From contig JAUVLG010000004.1 in NCBI GenBank assembly GCA_030595835.1, positions 1 to 58,124 of the forward strand: a stretch of 58,124 nucleotides of DNA, in the 5' to 3' direction. The notes beneath the pieces were generated by a model. The model saw only the letters and a program-made list of their open reading frames with translations. It was not told where the DNA came from and did not search any database. Each line of letters starts with the position of its first letter. The first letter of the stretch is position 1. A program made the position numbers and the translations under genes. This document shows, in pieces, positions 17,720 through 37,091 of this stretch. The stretch comes from Candidatus Eiseniibacteriota bacterium (lineage in GTDB: Bacteria > Joyebacterota > Joyebacteria > Joyebacterales > Joyebacteraceae).

Positions 17720-17809
17720 CTCAATATCACCCCTGCTAGGAAGAATGCCCTTTTGGTCGTCACGGCTCGGGTCGCGACGCGCCTTCCAGCCCCGATGGAG
17801 GATATCTGC

Positions 17810-20248
17810 ATGTCGAGGACACTCGCGCGAGTCACTGCGTTGTGGGTTGTTGCGTTGCTCGTGCTTCCGATCCCGGCCTTCAGCGTCGACGGCGCGGCCG
17901 AGTCTGCTCTCAAGCGCGTCACGTTCACGTTCACCGCTCACAGGTCTTTCGATCACGTGTTCCTGGCTGGCACCTTCAACGGCTGGAGCACCGATGCGAC
18001 GCCGATGCACCTGGAGGCAGGCCGGTACGAGGTGACCCTTCCTCTGCCCGCGGGCGAGTATCAGTACAAGTTCGTGGCTGACGGCGAGTGGATCACGGAC
18101 GAGAAGGCCAAGCGCTTCCTCCCTGACGGTTTCGGTGGGGAGAACTCTGTGATCGATGTAGGTGCTGAGTTCGATGGGTTAGATCTATCGAGAGGCGACG
18201 GGCGGATGTTCCTGGACGGGCTCGCTCATCGTGAGGATGCCTGGGAGCGTTCGGTCGAGCCCGACGGTACCGTCAGTATTCGCGCTCGCGCGTGGAAGGA
18301 CGACATCGAGGAAGTCCGCCTGCTCTGGAGCGGAAGCCCGGAAGCTGCAGGGACGAACGCCGGGCGCAGCGCAAGTGCGACCGGCGGTGACCTCATGCTT
18401 CTGTTCGACACGGACGGAATGTACGACTACTACAGCTTCGAGCTGAGTTCGCCTCGCTTCGCCTATCACTTCGTCCTCGTTGACGGTGATTCCAGGGCCG
18501 TGCTTGACCGCGCGGGCCCACATCCGGAGCCTCAGGGCGATCCCGCCCCCTTCGAGTTCAGCGCCGCGGAGCAGGCGGTATTCCGGACTCCCGATTGGGT
18601 CAAGGACGGGGTCATCTACCAGATATTCCCGGAGCGTTTCGCCAACGGGAACCCCGACAACGACCCGGATTTCTCCGAGTGGTACTACGAAGGAGTCGCC
18701 GAGCTGCCTCCGTCCGGCAAGACGAACGGGGAGTACTTCCACCTCGTGGATGACTGGTACGACGTTGGCGGGCTTGTTGCCAGCCCCTACAAGACCGACG
18801 GGAAGCCGGACTGGAACTCCTTCTACGGTGGAGACATCGAGGGCGTGCGTGCGAACCTCGACTATCTGCAAGACCTCGGTGTGACGATCATCTACTTCAA
18901 TCCCATCTTCGAATCGAAGAGCAATCACAAGTACGACGCGGTGACCTATCAGGAAATGGATCCCCACCTCGGGACGAACGAGGAGTTTGCAGCGTTTGTT
19001 CAAGCGTGCCATGAGAGAGGCATGCGGGTCGTGATCGACCTCGCCATCAACCACAGCGGGCACACGCACTGGGCGTTTGTCGACGCCAGGGAGAAGGGCG
19101 AGGAGTCGGAGTATTGGGATTGGTACGAGTGGAAGAAGTGGCCGGTGCCGGGCGGCACGGCATCCGCGCCTGCGAACCCGCTCGAGTACTACGACTGCTG
19201 GTGGGGGTTCGGGCAGATGCCGAACTTCAACTTCGATCTCGAGAGGGCGAACCCGGAGGAGCAGTCGATCACCGATATCGCTGAGGCGAACCCGAACTGG
19301 CCGCTCGTAAATCACCTGCTGGACGTGGCGGAGTATTGGATCGCGGACGTCGGCATCGACGGCTACAGGCTCGATGTGGCGGTGGAGGTGCCGTTCTGGT
19401 TCTGGGAGCTCTTCCGCGAGAGGGTCCGGTCCGCTAACCCGGACGCGTACATCGTGGGTGAGTTGTGGGGAGCCTCACCCGAGTGGGTCAACGGCCGCTA
19501 CTTCGACGCGGTCATGAACTACAAGTTCTTCCGGGACCCCGTGCTCGCCTTCATAGCGCGAGGAGACTACGGAGCATCCGAATTCGACCGCGCTCTCGCT
19601 CCGGGCAGGCTCATCTACGCCGATCAGGGCGTCCGTGCCATGATGAATCTCCTCGATAGTCACGACACCGAGCGTTTCCTGACGACCGTCGGGGGAGACG
19701 CGCGGCGCCTCAAGCTGGCAATCCTGTTCGCGATGACGTATGTCGGTGCGCCCACCATCTACTACGGAGATGAGGTCGCGATGACCGGAGCGCACGACCC
19801 GGACTGCCGGCGACCGTTCCTCTGGAACTGGGCTGAGGACAGCGAGCGTGTCGATATGCACGACTACTTCCGGAGGCTGGCCACGCTCCGGACGAGCCGG
19901 CAGTGCTTCACCAGAGGGGACTACCAGACGCTCCATGCCGCGGGCGCGGTCTTCGCCTTCCGCCGCAGCCTCGGTGACGACCACGCAGTGGTCTTGCTGA
20001 ATGCAGGCGCGGAAGAGGCGACCGTCTCGCTGGTCCTGGGTGAGGAGATCCACCGGTATGTCTCCGGTTCCGGCAGTCCCACCGATTTCTCGCACGCAGT
20101 GCTCAGGGACCACATAATGGGGGCATCTGAGAACATTGATACGTCCGGCGGCACTGCGAGCGTCACGGTAACGGTCCCGCCGCTGACGGGGCGCGTATAC
20201 ATCCCGATGGTGCTTGAGGTCATGTCGCACCCGTCGGGCGGCAAGTAA
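17810..20248 (+). CDS. secreted GH13 alpha-glucan hydrolase (neopullulanase/cyclomaltodextrinase-like) with N-terminal CBM48
   Basis: GGAGGA RBS. Signal peptide MSRTLARVTALWVVALLVLPIPAFS. CBM48 motif LAGTFNGW..YQYKFVADGEW. GH13 regions DGVIYQIFPERF, VIDLAINHSG, GIDGYRLDVA, VGELWG, LLDSHDTERF. Confidence 0.85.
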   Translation: MSRTLARVTALWVVALLVLPIPAFSVDGAAESALKRVTFTFTAHRSFDHVFLAGTFNGWSTDATPMHLEAGRYEVTLPLPAGEYQYKFVADGEWITDEKAKRFLPDGFGGENSVIDVGAEFDGLDLSRGDGRMFLDGLAHREDAWERSVEPDGTVSIRARAWKDDIEEVRLLWSGSPEAAGTNAGRSASATGGDLMLLFDTDGMYDYYSFELSSPRFAYHFVLVDGDSRAVLDRAGPHPEPQGDPAPFEFSAAEQAVFRTPDWVKDGVIYQIFPERFANGNPDNDPDFSEWYYEGVAELPPSGKTNGEYFHLVDDWYDVGGLVASPYKTDGKPDWNSFYGGDIEGVRANLDYLQDLGVTIIYFNPIFESKSNHKYDAVTYQEMDPHLGTNEEFAAFVQACHERGMRVVIDLAINHSGHTHWAFVDAREKGEESEYWDWYEWKKWPVPGGTASAPANPLEYYDCWWGFGQMPNFNFDLERANPEEQSITDIAEANPNWPLVNHLLDVAEYWIADVGIDGYRLDVAVEVPFWFWELFRERVRSANPDAYIVGELWGASPEWVNGRYFDAVMNYKFFRDPVLAFIARGDYGASEFDRALAPGRLIYADQGVRAMMNLLDSHDTERFLTTVGGDARRLKLAILFAMTYVGAPTIYYGDEVAMTGAHDPDCRRPFLWNWAEDSERVDMHDYFRRLATLRTSRQCFTRGDYQTLHAAGAVFAFRRSLGDDHAVVLLNAGAEEATVSLVLGEEIHRYVSGSGSPTDFSHAVLRDHIMGASENIDTSGGTASVTVTVPPLTGRVYIPMVLEVMSHPSGGK

Positions 20249-32982: not shown

Positions 32983-33011
32983 TTGACAGTGCTTTCAGTA
33001 TTGGCTAACGT
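32983..33011 (+). promoter_or_regulatory. sigma70-type promoter candidate for the ParA-CBM48 operon
   Basis: TTGACA-N17-TAACGT, about 150 nt upstream of the ATG at 33160. Confidence 0.4.
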
Positions 33012-33159
33012 TTCGCCGTCTGCACACTTATCGAGTAAACACAGAAACCCCGTATGCGGCGCCACGAACGCCGGGGACGGGCGTCTCTGTCGGGCATTGC
33101 TTGCCTGCGCTGAGGCATGCGCGGGGCGAGTGCGGGCCCGAGGGCTCGCGGGAGGCGTA

Positions 33160-34281
33160 ATGCGTTCGATCGCCATTGTGAACCAGAAGGGCGGCTGCGG
33201 GAAGACGACCACCGCGGTGAACTTGTCCTCATTCCTTGCGGACATGGGTAAGCGTGTCCTGCTCGTCGACTGCGATCCCCAGTCGCACGCATCGGTGGGT
33301 CTGGGTATTGAGACGGATCACCTCGAGCGGTCGACGTACGACCTTCTGATGGACCCCGCCGCCAAGGTCTCGGACGTTGCGGTACCAGCGGCCGAGAACC
33401 TGGATGTCGTACCCTCCAACGTCGTGCTCTCCGCCGTTGAGCAGCAGCTGTCGGGGCAGCCCGACAGAGAGAACAAGCTGCGATGGAAGCTCGAGAGTGC
33501 GGCCGCCGACTACGACTACGTGTTCATCGACTGTCCACCGAGCGTCGGACTTCTCACGTTCAACGCCATCGTTGCGGCGGGTGAGGTGATCGTCGTGATG
33601 GAGCCGTCCTACTTCGCGCTCCACGGTGCCCTCAAAGTCATGGAGACCCTCAAGCTCGTCCGCAATCAGCTGGGAATGCGGAAGCGAGTGAGGGTGCTCG
33701 TGACGATGTTCGACGGCCGAACCAGATTCTCCAAGGAGTTCTTGCGTGAGGCGAGGACACGCTTCGGACGAGAGATGTTCCAGGTCGTCATACGCAACAC
33801 GGTCCGCTTCAGAGAGGCGGCCAACTGGGGTGTCTCCATCTCGCACTACGCCAGGAGCTGCAAGGGGGCTCTTGACTACGAGCAGCTCGCCAAGGAGGTC
33901 CTGGCGGATGAGGCAGCGCTCGAGGTGGACGACTTCGAGCCCGTGAGCGCGGTTCCCGATTCGGAACTTGCGCCCGGAATGGACGAGTGGATACTCGCGC
34001 AGCCGGGACCGCACTTCATCGAGGGCGGCGTCCTCTTCTCTCTCGTGGCGCCGGAGGCGAACGATGTTGAACTCGTGGGCAGCTTCAACAACTGGGACCG
34101 CGCGCACGGTGTGAAGCTGACGAAGAACAGCAACGGTGTCTGGCACGCCAAGCTGGACCTGATTCCGGGCAGGCACCTCTACAAGTTCGTCATCGATGGG
34201 GCGTGGTGTCCGGACCCGGCCAACGAGAACAGATCCGCGCCGAACGAGGATTGCGTTGTAGAGGTCTACCGCAGGGACTAG
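33160..34281 (+). CDS. ParA/Soj-type ATPase fused to a C-terminal AMPK-beta-type glycogen-binding module (CBM48)
   Basis: GGGAGG RBS. Deviant Walker A IVNQKGGCGKTT, LVDCDPQ and FIDCPPS mark the ParA family. The last ~85 aa, VELVGSFNNWDRAHGVKL..GVWHAKLDLIPGRHLYKFVIDGAWCPDP, match the GSFNNW..YKF..DG.W..DP signature of the AMPK beta GBD. Confidence 0.8.
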   Translation: MRSIAIVNQKGGCGKTTTAVNLSSFLADMGKRVLLVDCDPQSHASVGLGIETDHLERSTYDLLMDPAAKVSDVAVPAAENLDVVPSNVVLSAVEQQLSGQPDRENKLRWKLESAAADYDYVFIDCPPSVGLLTFNAIVAAGEVIVVMEPSYFALHGALKVMETLKLVRNQLGMRKRVRVLVTMFDGRTRFSKEFLREARTRFGREMFQVVIRNTVRFREAANWGVSISHYARSCKGALDYEQLAKEVLADEAALEVDDFEPVSAVPDSELAPGMDEWILAQPGPHFIEGGVLFSLVAPEANDVELVGSFNNWDRAHGVKLTKNSNGVWHAKLDLIPGRHLYKFVIDGAWCPDPANENRSAPNEDCVVEVYRRD

Positions 34282-34360
34282 GTCGAGGTTCGCAGCAGAG
34301 ATTGAGTAGGGACTCGCTCGAGAACGCACCTTGGAATCTGACATCTCCGGACAGGGTGAC

Positions 34361-35302
34361 ATGGACGAGGACGTAAGCAGCAGATCCCCGAAGACGCTTG
34401 CAGATGTTTCTTACCTCTTCTTCTCCCAGACAGAGGAAGGCGCAGAGGAAACGCCGGAGGCGGCGGTGCGCCCAGCCGACGGCAGCGGAGCGGCGGCGGA
34501 CAGCGCTGGGCCGCGCCGGACGCGGCTCTTCGTCGTGACGGGTGGTGACGATTCTCCCGGGAAGTCGACGATCGCCGTCAACCTGGCTCAGGCTCTGGTG
34601 CCGTTCGGTCGTGTGGCGATCTTCGATGCCGATCCCAGAATTCCCAACGCCCGCTACTTCTTCGGTCTTCCTTCATGGCACTACCTGTCTCCTTTGACGG
34701 GCGGCGGAACGCCCGCTCCGAATGTCGTGACCGACGCGGGTGTTGTGGTCACCGACTGGTCGAGTGGGGAGAATGGGGAGTGCGACGCACTGGGCGCCGG
34801 TAGCGTTATCTACATGGACGTTCCGGAATCCGGGCGGACCCCCATGGATTTCGTCGTCGTCGATGTCCCCCTGTCCAGGACAGATCTGCTCTCGCGTCTC
34901 GCCGGGCGCGCGTCTGCCTACATCGTGGCGGCGCGACCCGGTCGCCGGGGCTTTGAGCACGCGTTCGTGGCCGTGAAGCGGGTCCGGAGCGAGTCCGGAG
35001 CGGATTCGGTCGCCCTTGTGGTCAACGTCCCCTCGAGCGAGGATTACGCAAGGGCATTTCATGCGAAGATGAAGGCGGCCGCGAAGCGTCTGTTGTCTGT
35101 GGATGTGCGTTTTCTGGGAACCGTTCCGCTCGAGCCCGGACTTGGCGCAGAACAGCGGGAGAGGGGTGCCATAGTCGCTTCGCGCCCGGACGCCGCGTGT
35201 GCTCTGTCGCTCCGGCAGATAGCAACGCATGCATTGGAACTGACGAGGAGCGACGGTCTGCCGGGGGAGCGAACGGACCCGCCGGACCGCAGGGAGGACT
35301 GA
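34361..35302 (+). CDS. degenerate MinD/ParA-superfamily P-loop protein
   Basis: LFVVTGGDDSPGKSTIAVNLA has the signature Lys replaced by Thr and a loop 2 residues longer. Also IFDADP and VVVDVPLS. Acidic N-terminal extension with ADVSYLFFS. Confidence 0.6.
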   Translation: MDEDVSSRSPKTLADVSYLFFSQTEEGAEETPEAAVRPADGSGAAADSAGPRRTRLFVVTGGDDSPGKSTIAVNLAQALVPFGRVAIFDADPRIPNARYFFGLPSWHYLSPLTGGGTPAPNVVTDAGVVVTDWSSGENGECDALGAGSVIYMDVPESGRTPMDFVVVDVPLSRTDLLSRLAGRASAYIVAARPGRRGFEHAFVAVKRVRSESGADSVALVVNVPSSEDYARAFHAKMKAAAKRLLSVDVRFLGTVPLEPGLGAEQRERGAIVASRPDAACALSLRQIATHALELTRSDGLPGERTDPPDRRED

Positions 35303-35304
35303 CC

Positions 35305-36210
35305 ATGAGTGCGAGAATAGAACGTATCCAGCTGCCCGAGGCGGCCCAGCTGAGGAGGACCCTGGCGGAGAGGGCCGACAGCGTGCACCCCGGTGCCAGG
35401 GTGGTGGACGCCGACGTGCAGGGTCCGTCCGGTGTGGACCTTCTGCTGGTGGACGATGACGGTCGGCCGGTCTTCGTCGACGTTGTGCCGGAGAGCGCAG
35501 GCGATGTCCCGACCCGCATCTTCGATCACACGCGGTGGTACGAACAGAGTCGCCGGCTGTTCCTCAAGGCCTACGCGAACGACGGTGTCGTCCGGATAGA
35601 AGATCCCATCTTCGTGTTCGTCGGTTCGCGGTTCCCCGCGTCCGTGCTTGAGGCGGTCAGAGCGATGCCGGGTGTACCGGTTCGTTTGGTCCGCGCTGAG
35701 TATTTCCTCATCGATGGTGCCGCGGAGGTCCTGCTGGAGGATGTGACGCCCTCGGTGCAGGAGCGGATCAGCACATCGGTGGCGCGCAGGACGGACGACA
35801 TGTCCGCTGGAGGTGAATCGAGGTCTCGGAACGTCATCGAATCTGACGCCGTGCGGACGCTACTCGCTCTCTTCCGGTCCGGAGTCGACGGTCTGGATGG
35901 CCGCATCGCGACCGCGGAATCCAACGACCGCATCTCGTTCAGCATGGGTGACCGCAGGCTGGCTGAGGTGGCGATCTCGCCGGGCAGCTTCACGGTGTCA
36001 CCAGGCGACGGTCTCATCAACCCGATAGTGGTGTCGGACCGCGTGTCGCTCGAGCGAGCGCTGAACTCCGTGGTGTCTCTGTTCGTCCGCGAGGAGCGGA
36101 CGACGGACGGAGGGAACGGTCAGGGGGCGGACGTCGAGCTGACTGACGACGAACGGTCGGCCCTGTCCGACATATGGGGAGCGGGTGTCCGGGCGAGTGA
36201 CCGTAGCTAG
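35305..36210 (+). CDS. hypothetical protein; N-terminus faintly NucS/PD-(D/E)xK-like
   Basis: AGGGAGGA RBS, with the ATG 2 nt after the upstream stop. DLLLVDDDGRPVFVDVV resembles a nuclease-fold core but lacks the Lys. No other motif. Confidence 0.5.
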   Translation: MSARIERIQLPEAAQLRRTLAERADSVHPGARVVDADVQGPSGVDLLLVDDDGRPVFVDVVPESAGDVPTRIFDHTRWYEQSRRLFLKAYANDGVVRIEDPIFVFVGSRFPASVLEAVRAMPGVPVRLVRAEYFLIDGAAEVLLEDVTPSVQERISTSVARRTDDMSAGGESRSRNVIESDAVRTLLALFRSGVDGLDGRIATAESNDRISFSMGDRRLAEVAISPGSFTVSPGDGLINPIVVSDRVSLERALNSVVSLFVREERTTDGGNGQGADVELTDDERSALSDIWGAGVRASDRS

Positions 36211-36312
36211 CCTGGGACACCGATCTGCCGCCGAGTGTCGTCCTGGGAATCCGTTGGCGCTCTGATGTCTGAGGTGAGCGTGTGCTCATGTCTGAGGTGA
36301 CGCTGAATACAC

Positions 36313-36345
36313 GCGAAGAGCCGACCCCATGGGTCGGCTCTTCGC
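36313..36345. terminator. 15-bp perfect palindromic hairpin between convergent genes
   Basis: GCGAAGAGCCGACCC-CAT-GGGTCGGCTCTTCGC. No U-tract on either strand. Confidence 0.4.
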
Positions 36346-36551: not shown

Positions 36552-37091
36552 CTACTGGGTGGGGTAGCGGGAATCTTCTATCCCGCGGAAAGCGGTCCTG
36601 ATGCGTGCAAGTTCGGTGGCGATTGTCCTGATCGACAGGCTGAGAGCCTGAGCGACCTCTCTTTGAGTGAAACCCTGCGATATTGCGTATAGGATCTCCT
36701 GCTGGCGTGTCGTCAGCTGATTGATCGTGTCATTGACCTCAATAGAGAGGGCGAGGGTGTCCTGGACCATGTCGATGGGGGATGACAACAGGATCTCGTG
36801 CCACTCCGTCGGGACGTATCGGAGAACCTCAGGATCCACGTCGCCCAGGACGCCGTAGAGGATGATCTGACGGTCAAGGTCGCCGTCCGGGCAGTCGATG
36901 GCCGTCCGTGTCATGAATTTCAGGGCCTGCCACCTGGCGCTGGAGAGATACCAACCCTTCGGCTTGCCTTCCGGAGCGCGCCAGATGTCGATCCGCATCT
37001 CCTGTGCGAGATCCAGCTGAAGCATCTCATCGGGGGTGAGGCGCGCTGCAATGCGCGCTATCTCTGGTTCGAGTTCATGCCAGTTGTGCAT
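36552..37091 (-). CDS. sigma-70 r2/r4-like (ECF-like) / LuxR-type HTH regulator
   Basis: DLAQEMRIDIWRA is region-2-like. LTTRQQEILYAISQGFTQREVAQALSLSIRTIATELARIR is a GerE / sigma r4-type HTH. Visibly lower GC than its neighbours. Poor RBS. Confidence 0.55.
   Translation of the reverse strand: MHNWHELEPEIARIAARLTPDEMLQLDLAQEMRIDIWRAPEGKPKGWYLSSARWQALKFMTRTAIDCPDGDLDRQIILYGVLGDVDPEVLRYVPTEWHEILLSSPIDMVQDTLALSIEVNDTINQLTTRQQEILYAISQGFTQREVAQALSLSIRTIATELARIRTAFRGIEDSRYPTQ

Follow-up and report, generated by a model that had tools for sequence, protein, structure and literature searches.

The DNA analyzed here is a 58,124-nt stretch from a Candidatus Eiseniibacteriota bacterium (contig JAUVLG010000004.1 of GenBank assembly GCA_030595835.1, taken as a whole and called the window below), and its subject is a set of three co-directional plus-strand open reading frames (ORFs) within positions 33160–36210. 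Gene 1 encodes a ParA-type ATPase joined to a C-terminal CBM48 module of the AMPK-beta type, gene 2 a degenerate protein of the MinD/ParA superfamily, and gene 3 a protein with a probable nuclease-like fold. We tentatively read these genes as a self-contained ParA/MinD-type spatial-organization module in which recognition of cytoplasmic α-glucan (glycogen) is built into the ATPase, a reading for which the balance falls just short of even. Its stronger form is rather doubtful: that this would be the first dedicated bacterial polysaccharide-granule-organizing machine, with ParA binding glycogen through CBM48, the nucleoid serving as track and a new class of activator completing the cycle, in at least seven phyla. 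Gene 1 spans 33160–34281 (373 aa, with GGGAGG 6 nt 5′ of its start), gene 2 spans 34361–35302 (313 aa) and gene 3 spans 35305–36210 (301 aa), each from ATG to stop. Genes 1 and 2 are separated by 79 nt, and only 2 nt lie between the stop of gene 2 and the start of gene 3, in agreement with the tightly spaced three-gene operon proposed in an initial annotation made from the letters of the window.

The ParA-type ATPase and its CBM48 module

Proteins of the ParA family bind ATP, dimerize, attach to a surface (DNA, or the membrane for MinD) and are released when a partner peptide stimulates hydrolysis. All residues needed for this ATPase cycle are conserved in gene 1, together with the DNA-binding arginine, and they predict a complete Soj-type ParA capable of ATP-dependent dimerization and partner-stimulated hydrolysis. 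The protein consists of a ParA/Soj-type deviant Walker A ATPase (aa 1–250), a linker (aa 251–282) and the CBM48/AMPK-beta-type module (aa 283–370). In Pfam searches, residues 1–171 match AAA_31 (E 3e-53; 180.7 bits against a cutoff of 27), and CbiA is matched as well (E 8e-22; 77.9 bits, cutoff 25.4). The description of gene 1 as a canonical Soj/ParA is upheld by these matches and by the motifs read from its sequence, NQKGGCGKTT (the deviant Walker A with the signature Lys), DCDPQ and DCPPS. The closest solved structures to the ATPase domain are M. xanthus ParA (8ray, E 3.6e-51) and T. thermophilus Soj (E 1e-47); similarity to MinD (E ~1e-16 to 1e-18) and to McdA (6noo, E 2e-14) is far weaker.

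Residue conservation was assessed in an alignment of 115 members of the ParA-CBM48 family. The signature Lys K10 and the P-loop Lys K15 are kept in 114 of the 115, the remaining row being gapped; the Walker A′ aspartates D37 and D39 are likewise missing from a single gapped row only, and the Walker B aspartate D124 is found in every member. Position 216 is Arg or Lys throughout (115/115) and aligns with R238 of M. xanthus ParA, where the R238E variant loses non-specific DNA binding (PMC12462528). The pocket for the ParB peptide is largely retained: five of six M. xanthus ParA residues are conserved and hydrophobic in the family, with L150, L152, L155, L187 and L192 corresponding to V129, L131, F134, L166 and L171 of gene 1. 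The sixth position, V116 in M. xanthus ParA, has become a near-invariant Gln95 (114/115), and F134, found in 110/115 members, stands where M. xanthus ParA has L155. This distribution suggests Q95 and F134 as candidate specificity determinants that could insulate the system from chromosomal ParAB, and the pattern of pocket residues fits a related but private peptide–pocket pair with gene 2.

The C-terminal region of gene 1 had been assigned to the AMPK beta/CBM48 glycogen-binding fold, and hidden Markov model (HMM) searches recover the proposed two-domain architecture, AAA_31 and CbiA being followed by CBM_48 and AMPK1_CBM in one protein. CBM_48 is matched at aa 283–349 (E 1.2e-11; 45.2 bits, cutoff 22.4) and AMPK1_CBM at aa 299–356 (E 4e-11; 43.4 bits, cutoff 26.8); the motifs GSFNNW, YKF and DGAW can all be read in the sequence. 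The best solved relatives of the module are the CBMs of AMPK β1 and β2 (4yef/1z0m, E 2.4e-8), followed by the CBM48s of GH13 pullulanase, GlgB and SEX4. Within GSFNNW, YKF and DGAW lie the predicted glucan contacts W312, K342 and W349 (codons 34093–34095, 34183–34185 and 34204–34206, respectively, plus strand). These align with W100, K126 and W133 of AMPK β1, in which glycogen binding is lost in the W100G and K126Q variants and reduced in W133L (PMC6274970). Among the 115 sequences, W312 and K342 (as Lys or Arg) are conserved at 100% and W349 at 99%. No positions of the module are better conserved than these three together with Y341, D352 and N355, and for the three the figure stays at 98–100% across homologs only 41–47% identical overall. 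Conservation of the Trp pair and the Lys/Arg is what purifying selection for sugar binding would predict, and α-glucan (glycogen) is a reasonable inference for the ligand.

Genes 2 and 3 as a partner unit

The order ParA-CBM48, gene 2-like, gene 3-like is kept well beyond the window, bearing out the expectation that the three-gene neighborhood might be conserved. It recurs in all four distant loci examined (L001, L002/L003, L004 and L005), whose flanks are unrelated, and in the Eisenbacteria locus L129, where the whole local synteny of the window is retained. The neighbors in the distant loci are a 248–310 aa protein with a faint CbiA match or none, then a 184–267 aa protein without a Pfam match, and BLAST and HMM comparisons identify them as homologs of genes 2 and 3. 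The two genes also occur as natural fusions. P0336 (locus L125) and a protein of locus L086 combine the N-terminal peptide of gene 2 with the nuclease-like domain of gene 3, P0463 (locus L126) contains all of gene 2 together with the gene 3 domain, and gene 2–gene 3 fusions of 418–535 aa lie 3′ of six Phycisphaerae-class ParA-CBM48 genes, including the Tepidisphaerales locus L081 (hhalign probabilities of 86.5% and 90%). Every one of these fusions is located directly downstream of a ParA-CBM48 gene. Because both are found naturally fused, genes 2 and 3 can be regarded as one conserved partner unit.

In loci from Omnitrophota and some Planctomycetia, other genes (for Lys-rich proteins) stand downstream, and neither gene 2 nor gene 3 was detected there. 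A small Lys-rich protein (e.g., MPPKKKKITVRKPARKALSIKKKK...) follows ParA-CBM48 in L016, L042, L053, L074, L095 and L123, which belong to Omnitrophota and one Planctomycetales genome, sometimes with a small membrane protein between. With its basic N-terminus, the Lys-rich protein may take the partner's place in these loci.

Gene 2 begins with a short peptide (aa 10–22, PKTLADVSYLFFS), followed by a variable acidic/Pro-rich linker (aa 23–55) that is probably disordered and a degenerate MinD/ParA fold (aa 56–290). The peptide is near-invariant across 21 Eisenbacteria homologs, where it reads PKTLADVSHLFFS. Distant orthologs have RKLGRGLADVAHVFLS, KRLGRGLEEVSHLFLS, RSLGRGLEDISHVFLS and KPLGRGLEDVSHLFLS, with the pattern K/R-LGRGLxxVxHLFLS, and Phycisphaerae have EYDALADLFLG. 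At the level of sequence, the peptide resembles the ParA-binding motif of chromosomal ParB. In M. xanthus ParB this motif comprises residues 11–19; L11, L15, L18 and I19 are essential for binding, and R13, a Lys in about half of ParBs, is required for ParA stimulation (PMC12462528). The LGRGLxxV of the distant orthologs matches the ParB pattern L11-x-R13-x-L15-x-x-L18, and LGRGLE(E/D)V/I-S keeps L, R, L and V/I. A search with the N-terminal peptide against the PDB and plasmids gave no match.

The fold that follows the linker matches CbiA (E 2e-7; 31.5 bits against a cutoff of 25.4), as expected for the MinD/ParA-superfamily protein that had been recognized here. Its P-loop, TGGDDSPGKST, has Thr in place of the signature Lys, also as first described; with the GG pair aligned it is longer than KGGxGKT by three residues, which corrects an earlier count of two. 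The same letters are also readable as a classical GxxxxGKST Walker A motif. GK[ST] is kept in Eisenbacteria and gone in the L002, L004 and L005 orthologs. Since the signature Lys is absent, the P-loop is lengthened and GK[ST] has been lost in several orthologs, catalysis is not a conserved property of gene 2.

Gene 3 had been described as an orphan with a faint nuclease-like core lacking the catalytic Lys. Foldseek lends the fold tentative support, alignments confirm the loss of the Lys, and the status of orphan falls with its place in a conserved unit with gene 2. The protein has a putative NucS/EndoMS-like PD-(D/E)XK fold (aa 1–150), a disordered linker, an alpha/beta domain (aa 175–265) and a conserved acidic helix (aa 280–293, ELTDDERSALSDIW); searches of Pfam and NCBIfam gave no match. 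In an AlphaFold2 (AF2) model with a mean predicted local distance difference test (pLDDT) of 72.7, values over the N-domain are 80–93. Foldseek pairs this domain with EndoMS/NucS (5gke and 2vld) at probabilities of 0.99–1.0, but with E-values of 7e-3 to 2.5e-2 and a template modeling (TM) score of ~0.3; restriction-enzyme and Shedu nuclease domains are resembled more weakly, and two gene 3 relatives have NucS_C matches below threshold. The catalytic D...(D/E)xK triad is not conserved in the Eisenbacteria alignment or in the four distant orthologs. D45 is invariant in the former and is Asp in three of the latter and Glu in L001; the second acidic position is occupied by D, E, Q, I or C, and no Lys comes after it. 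The nuclease fold is predicted to be catalytically dead in all orthologs.

A gene 3 profile search returned 283 cluster representatives, most of which match the N-domain only. The model of the C-domain (pLDDT 71.8) has no significant structural neighbor, its frataxin/YdhG-like matches having E > 0.05. The middle alpha/beta domain is missing from the short orthologs of L002, L004 and L005, and it is therefore not part of the core. An acidic amphipathic helix, L-[TS]-x-[DE]-E-[RI]-x-x-[LF], forms the C-terminal end of all gene 3 orthologs. A gene 3-like dead-nuclease domain also heads Ala/Pro-rich proteins of 550–650 aa (P0371 and P0395, with the conserved tail ...FP.DGVLTRQWMEFLNQMA), and a gene 3-like Ala/Pro-rich protein in L128 (861–2504) sits between a sigma-54 activator and response regulators, with no adjoining ParA. 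P0371-type proteins, which are not beside ParA, were set aside as members of the system and are regarded as a separate use of the domain.

Proposed mechanism and alternative explanations

ParA/MinD ATPases are a general bacterial solution for placing large cytoplasmic objects. To our knowledge, their cargos comprise chromosomes, plasmids, carboxysomes, chemoreceptor arrays and the division site, with no polysaccharide store among them, and we know of essentially no study of how bacterial glycogen is distributed at division. In the mechanism proposed here, gene 1 would bind ATP and form a sandwich dimer, which would bind the nucleoid non-specifically through its Arg216 surface. The dimer would present two CBM48 modules, so that weak single-site sugar binding would become dimer-dependent bivalent binding; this avidity logic can be likened to that of the C-terminal membrane helix of MinD, which works only in the dimer. 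Glycogen particles would be tethered to the nucleoid-bound ATPase and spread over the nucleoid. The gene 2/gene 3 unit would then deliver paired activating peptides that trigger ATP hydrolysis, freeing the ATPase from DNA and granule, and the dead nuclease fold of gene 3, alone or together with the pseudo-ATPase part of gene 2, would most likely dimerize or cluster the peptides or anchor them. Glycogen would in this way be distributed dynamically along the nucleoid and passed on to both daughter cells. The sequences show the domains, the conserved residues, the conserved operon and the fusion of genes 2 and 3; that the proteins bind glucan and DNA, that the ATPase is stimulated and that granules are distributed or inherited in this way are predictions. 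The geometry departs from the adaptor-on-cargo model, because the binding module is on the ATPase, which also keeps the DNA-binding arginine.

Several points weigh against glycogen as a positioned cargo. In classical ParA systems it is the activator, and not the ATPase, that resides on the cargo. Bacterial glycogen mostly takes the form of numerous small particles, and these have no obvious need of active partitioning. The weakest link of the proposal is the cellular location of the gene 2/gene 3 unit. The window peptide, PKTLADVSYLF, matches the ParB motif only in part, the Lys, the second Leu and the Val being kept and the first Leu not. In the module itself, the last CBM loop of the Eisenbacteria clade (window included) is three residues shorter, with Asp-Cys replacing Asn-Ser. 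Distant homologs keep G-x-x-N-S in this loop, which corresponds to AMPK β1 residues ~146–150 and lies outside the HMMER alignment; the Asn that they share with AMPK β1, presumably N150, is Asp in the window protein. Lastly, an intracellular glycogen enzyme is found nearby in only one of seven Pfam-annotated neighborhoods; in L001, a GH57 branching enzyme lies ~6–8 kb upstream of the ParA-CBM48 gene. Since gene context with glycogen genes is weak, the assignment of glycogen rests on the CBM itself.

That most loci have no glycogen-related flanking genes is what might be expected if glycogen were a signal and not the cargo. CBM48 would then make the ATPase a sensor or sink of the glucan reserve, with binding titrating or inhibiting ParA, and ParA and genes 2/3 would serve to place a different object, for instance a protein assembly, a DNA region or the division site. 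We assign this a minor, still appreciable, share of the probability. It has a precedent in the CBM of AMPK, a glycogen sensor that inhibits the kinase (PMC6274970; PMC2642990). The pseudo-ATPase and nuclease folds of the partner unit could bind a separate cargo of their own, and the CBM-ATPase looks like a constant core around which the partner side may vary, as in Omnitrophota and some Planctomycetia. This explanation is weakened by the lack of any conserved candidate cargo gene, no FtsZ, chemotaxis, flagellar or microcompartment genes being present in the seven annotated loci.

The shortened and altered binding-site loop of the Eisenbacteria clade could instead mean that the C-terminal module has lost sugar binding and become a beta-sandwich protein-interaction domain, for example for the acidic helix of gene 3, with no link to glucan. 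The AMPK beta CBM48 fold also contacts the kinase domain, and the conserved acidic amphipathic helix that ends all gene 3 orthologs would be a candidate binding partner. We nevertheless think it improbable, given that the two stacking Trp and the Lys/Arg, the residues needed for glycogen binding by AMPK β1, are the most conserved across phyla.

A DNA-segregation-like system is still harder to accommodate and has only a slim chance of being correct. The dead nuclease fold of gene 3 (with or without gene 2) would act as a non-canonical centromere binder, the N-terminal peptide would activate ParA, and the CBM would anchor or bias the ATPase, an arrangement likened to a type Ib ParA with a ParG- or omega-like protein. 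The ATPase is indeed nearest to chromosomal Soj/ParA, the partner peptide looks ParB-like, the minimal natural partner (P0336/L125 and L086) is reduced to peptide and nuclease-fold domain, and PD-(D/E)XK folds commonly bind DNA. However, Pfam and NCBIfam searches found no ParBc, ParB/Srx, ribbon-helix-helix (RHH) or helix-turn-helix (HTH) domain in gene 2, gene 3 or their neighbors, and the sequence beside the operon has a few short repeats in two copies and a single hairpin but nothing like an iterated or palindromic parS array; the absence of parB and of parS-like repeats reported initially is thereby confirmed. The contexts are ordinary chromosomal ones, on contigs of 165–661 kb with no plasmid or origin genes nearby, and the explanation leaves a strictly conserved CBM without a role.

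An assembly or gene-calling artefact, against which the initial annotation had cautioned, has a negligible probability: a chimera is excluded because the fusion recurs in >110 distinct 90%-identity clusters that hold both domains in one 350–420 aa protein (from NCBI, JGI, ENA and Logan assemblies) and in at least 35 ORFs from independent species-representative genomes. The latter come from scanning one genome per species for degenerate DNA that encodes the conserved CBM core, Y-[KR]-x2-[VIL]-DG-x-W-x2-DP-x-N, a scan in which counts are lower bounds; among the matches listed, 35 of 133 fall in ORFs that also contain KGGxGK[ST]. Carriers among these listed matches include, on the planctomycetal side, Pirellulales, Planctomycetia, Phycisphaerae, Sedimentisphaerales and Tepidisphaerales; elsewhere, Omnitrophota, Myxococcota/Myxococcales, 'Deltaproteobacteria', Gemmatimonadales and Rokubacteria; and further, Thiogranum, another gammaproteobacterium and unclassified bacteria. 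Overall, the fusion is found in Planctomycetota, Omnitrophota, Myxococcota, Gemmatimonadota, Rokubacteria, Gammaproteobacteria and Eisenbacteria. Close relatives (70–94% identity) are annotated as Candidatus Eisenbacteria, and homologs carry only the database names 'chromosome partitioning protein', 'AAA family ATPase' and 'Soj'. Two Eisenbacteria proteins hold one part each: P0065 (257 aa, on an 81 kb contig) is a ParA, 75% identical, that lacks the CBM, and P0066 (216 aa), a close relative, consists only of linker and CBM. They may be frameshifts, gene-call splits or natural split versions.

Genomic context and relation to known systems

The promoter-like TTGACA-N17-TAACGT noted in the initial annotation is present at 32984–33012 (plus strand), 148 nt 5′ of the gene 1 start codon; its reading as a promoter fared less well, a standard sigma-70 consensus scan not passing it, with only 3/6 matches in the −10 element. 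The L129 ortholog, on an Eisenbacteria contig, is preceded by TTGACA-N17-TAGCGT at the equivalent position. Two alternative starts were rejected. A longer gene 1 ORF from 32896 is used by no homolog, all of which begin MRSIAIV, and a TTG start for gene 2 at 34331 was ruled out by all 23 aligned homologs, which begin at Met 34361. Downstream, a hairpin at 36313–36345 (no strand assigned), with a perfect 15-bp stem, a 3-nt loop and no T-run, lies between the convergent gene 3 and sigma-factor gene and is a possible operon terminator. A terminator scan that requires a T-run found no intrinsic terminator for the operon and did not pick up this hairpin. A direct repeat, CTSATGTCTGAGGTGA, occurs as two copies 23 nt apart at 36262–36300 of the window.

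The 5′ flank, on the opposite strand, encodes a DUF6588 protein, a lipoprotein-like ORF and a Ser/Thr kinase with TPR repeats, and the converging 3′ flank a sigma-70/GerE-type regulator (36552–37091, minus strand) and then a transglutaminase-like protein; nothing in these flanks is related to DNA partition or glycogen. A syntenic block shared by the window and L129 comprises GH13, two PmbA-TldD genes, a lipoprotein gene, DUF6588, the ParA-CBM48 operon, sigma-GerE and transglutaminase. Relative to L129, the block of the window holds an insertion of ~8 kb, with a CBM96 protein, an Exo_endo_phos protein and the Ser/Thr kinase with TPR repeats. The GH13 gene of the window (17753–20248, plus strand) encodes a secreted alpha-amylase-family enzyme, and the statement that the same type of module heads it is correct: AMPK1_CBM is matched at its N-terminus (E 5e-14) behind a signal peptide, MSRTLARVTALWVVALLVLPIPAFS, and this module is 32% identical to that of gene 1. 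The gene is located ~13 kb upstream of the operon in the window and 5 kb away in L129 (2947–5298). A giant BcrAD_BadFG/DUF2229/HGD-D protein (~1430 aa) is encoded 2–7 kb from the module in L001 (1744–6051) and L002 (15825–17098); its presence in two unrelated distant loci may be a coincidence.

PADLOC gave no match to genes 2 and 3, and its match to gene 1 (21.8 bits) is only at the level of the P-loop. An anti-phage defense role was rejected on this lack of a PADLOC match, on the dead nuclease triad and on the inheritance of the module with conserved synteny inside Eisenbacteria. A literature search found no description linking a ParA-type ATPase with glycogen or a CBM, consistent with the initial statement that no glycogen-partitioning ParA had been described; subscription journals were mostly not covered, and the absence is not proof. 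If the reading of glycogen as cargo is correct, a polysaccharide store would be a new class of cargo for ParA/MinD ATPases, placement of the recognition domain on the ATPase would be a new design principle in which dimerization could gate cargo binding by avidity, and the partner would be a new type of activator, with a ParB-like peptide reused on an unrelated scaffold. If the CBM acts instead as a reserve sensor, the system would be a prokaryotic parallel to glycogen sensing by AMPK, which would be equally interesting. The system is self-contained in two or three genes and occurs in metagenome-assembled genomes of Myxococcota, Planctomycetota and Gammaproteobacteria, and should be experimentally tractable.

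The module belongs to the ParA/MinD ATPase family and is not ParABS, McdAB, PomXYZ or MinCDE. It resembles ParABS in that gene 1 is nearest to chromosomal ParA and retains the signature Lys, the arginine for DNA binding and the larger part of the pocket for the ParB peptide, and in that gene 2 begins with a peptide partly resembling the ParB motif, followed by a flexible linker. However, it is without the ParB/Srx CTPase domain and parS, the ATPase carries an additional CBM48, the pocket has Q95 and F134 where M. xanthus ParA has V116 and L155, and the partner is a pseudo-ATPase with a dead nuclease fold. With McdAB, PomXYZ, ParC/ParP and PpfA it would share, by analogy, the use of a ParA-type ATPase for a cytoplasmic structure other than DNA, with activating partners encoded adjacently. 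In those systems the cargo is recognized by the partner protein, whereas here the predicted recognition domain is on the ATPase, and carbohydrate-binding modules, pseudo-ATPase partners and nuclease-fold partners are not known from any of them. PomXYZ has two partner proteins, as here (PMC13170346). MinD offers another analogy: gene 1 likewise encodes a ParA/MinD-fold ATPase with a C-terminal appendage, here predicted to target a surface, whose low affinity would suffice only once the ATP dimer has formed. Instead of the membrane, gene 1 would target a polysaccharide; its sequence is nearer to Soj, and MinC and MinE are missing.

Outside the ATPase family, the AMPK beta CBM is the best structural relative of the gene 1 module, with W100, K126 and W133 retained; the host protein here is a bacterial P-loop ATPase, and the last loop is shortened in the Eisenbacteria clade. 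In AMPK beta and in plant PTST, a CBM48 without catalytic activity targets a regulatory protein to a storage glucan, and gene 1 can be likened to both. PhaM and PhaF, which tether polyhydroxybutyrate (PHB) storage granules to the nucleoid for distribution at division, are a functional analogy to the proposed role, although these proteins are unrelated to those of the operon and have no ATPase cycle. Set beside all of these systems, the module has a familiar ATPase engine; its novelty would lie in what it is proposed to bind or carry, in having recognition built into the ATPase, and in how the activator is composed.

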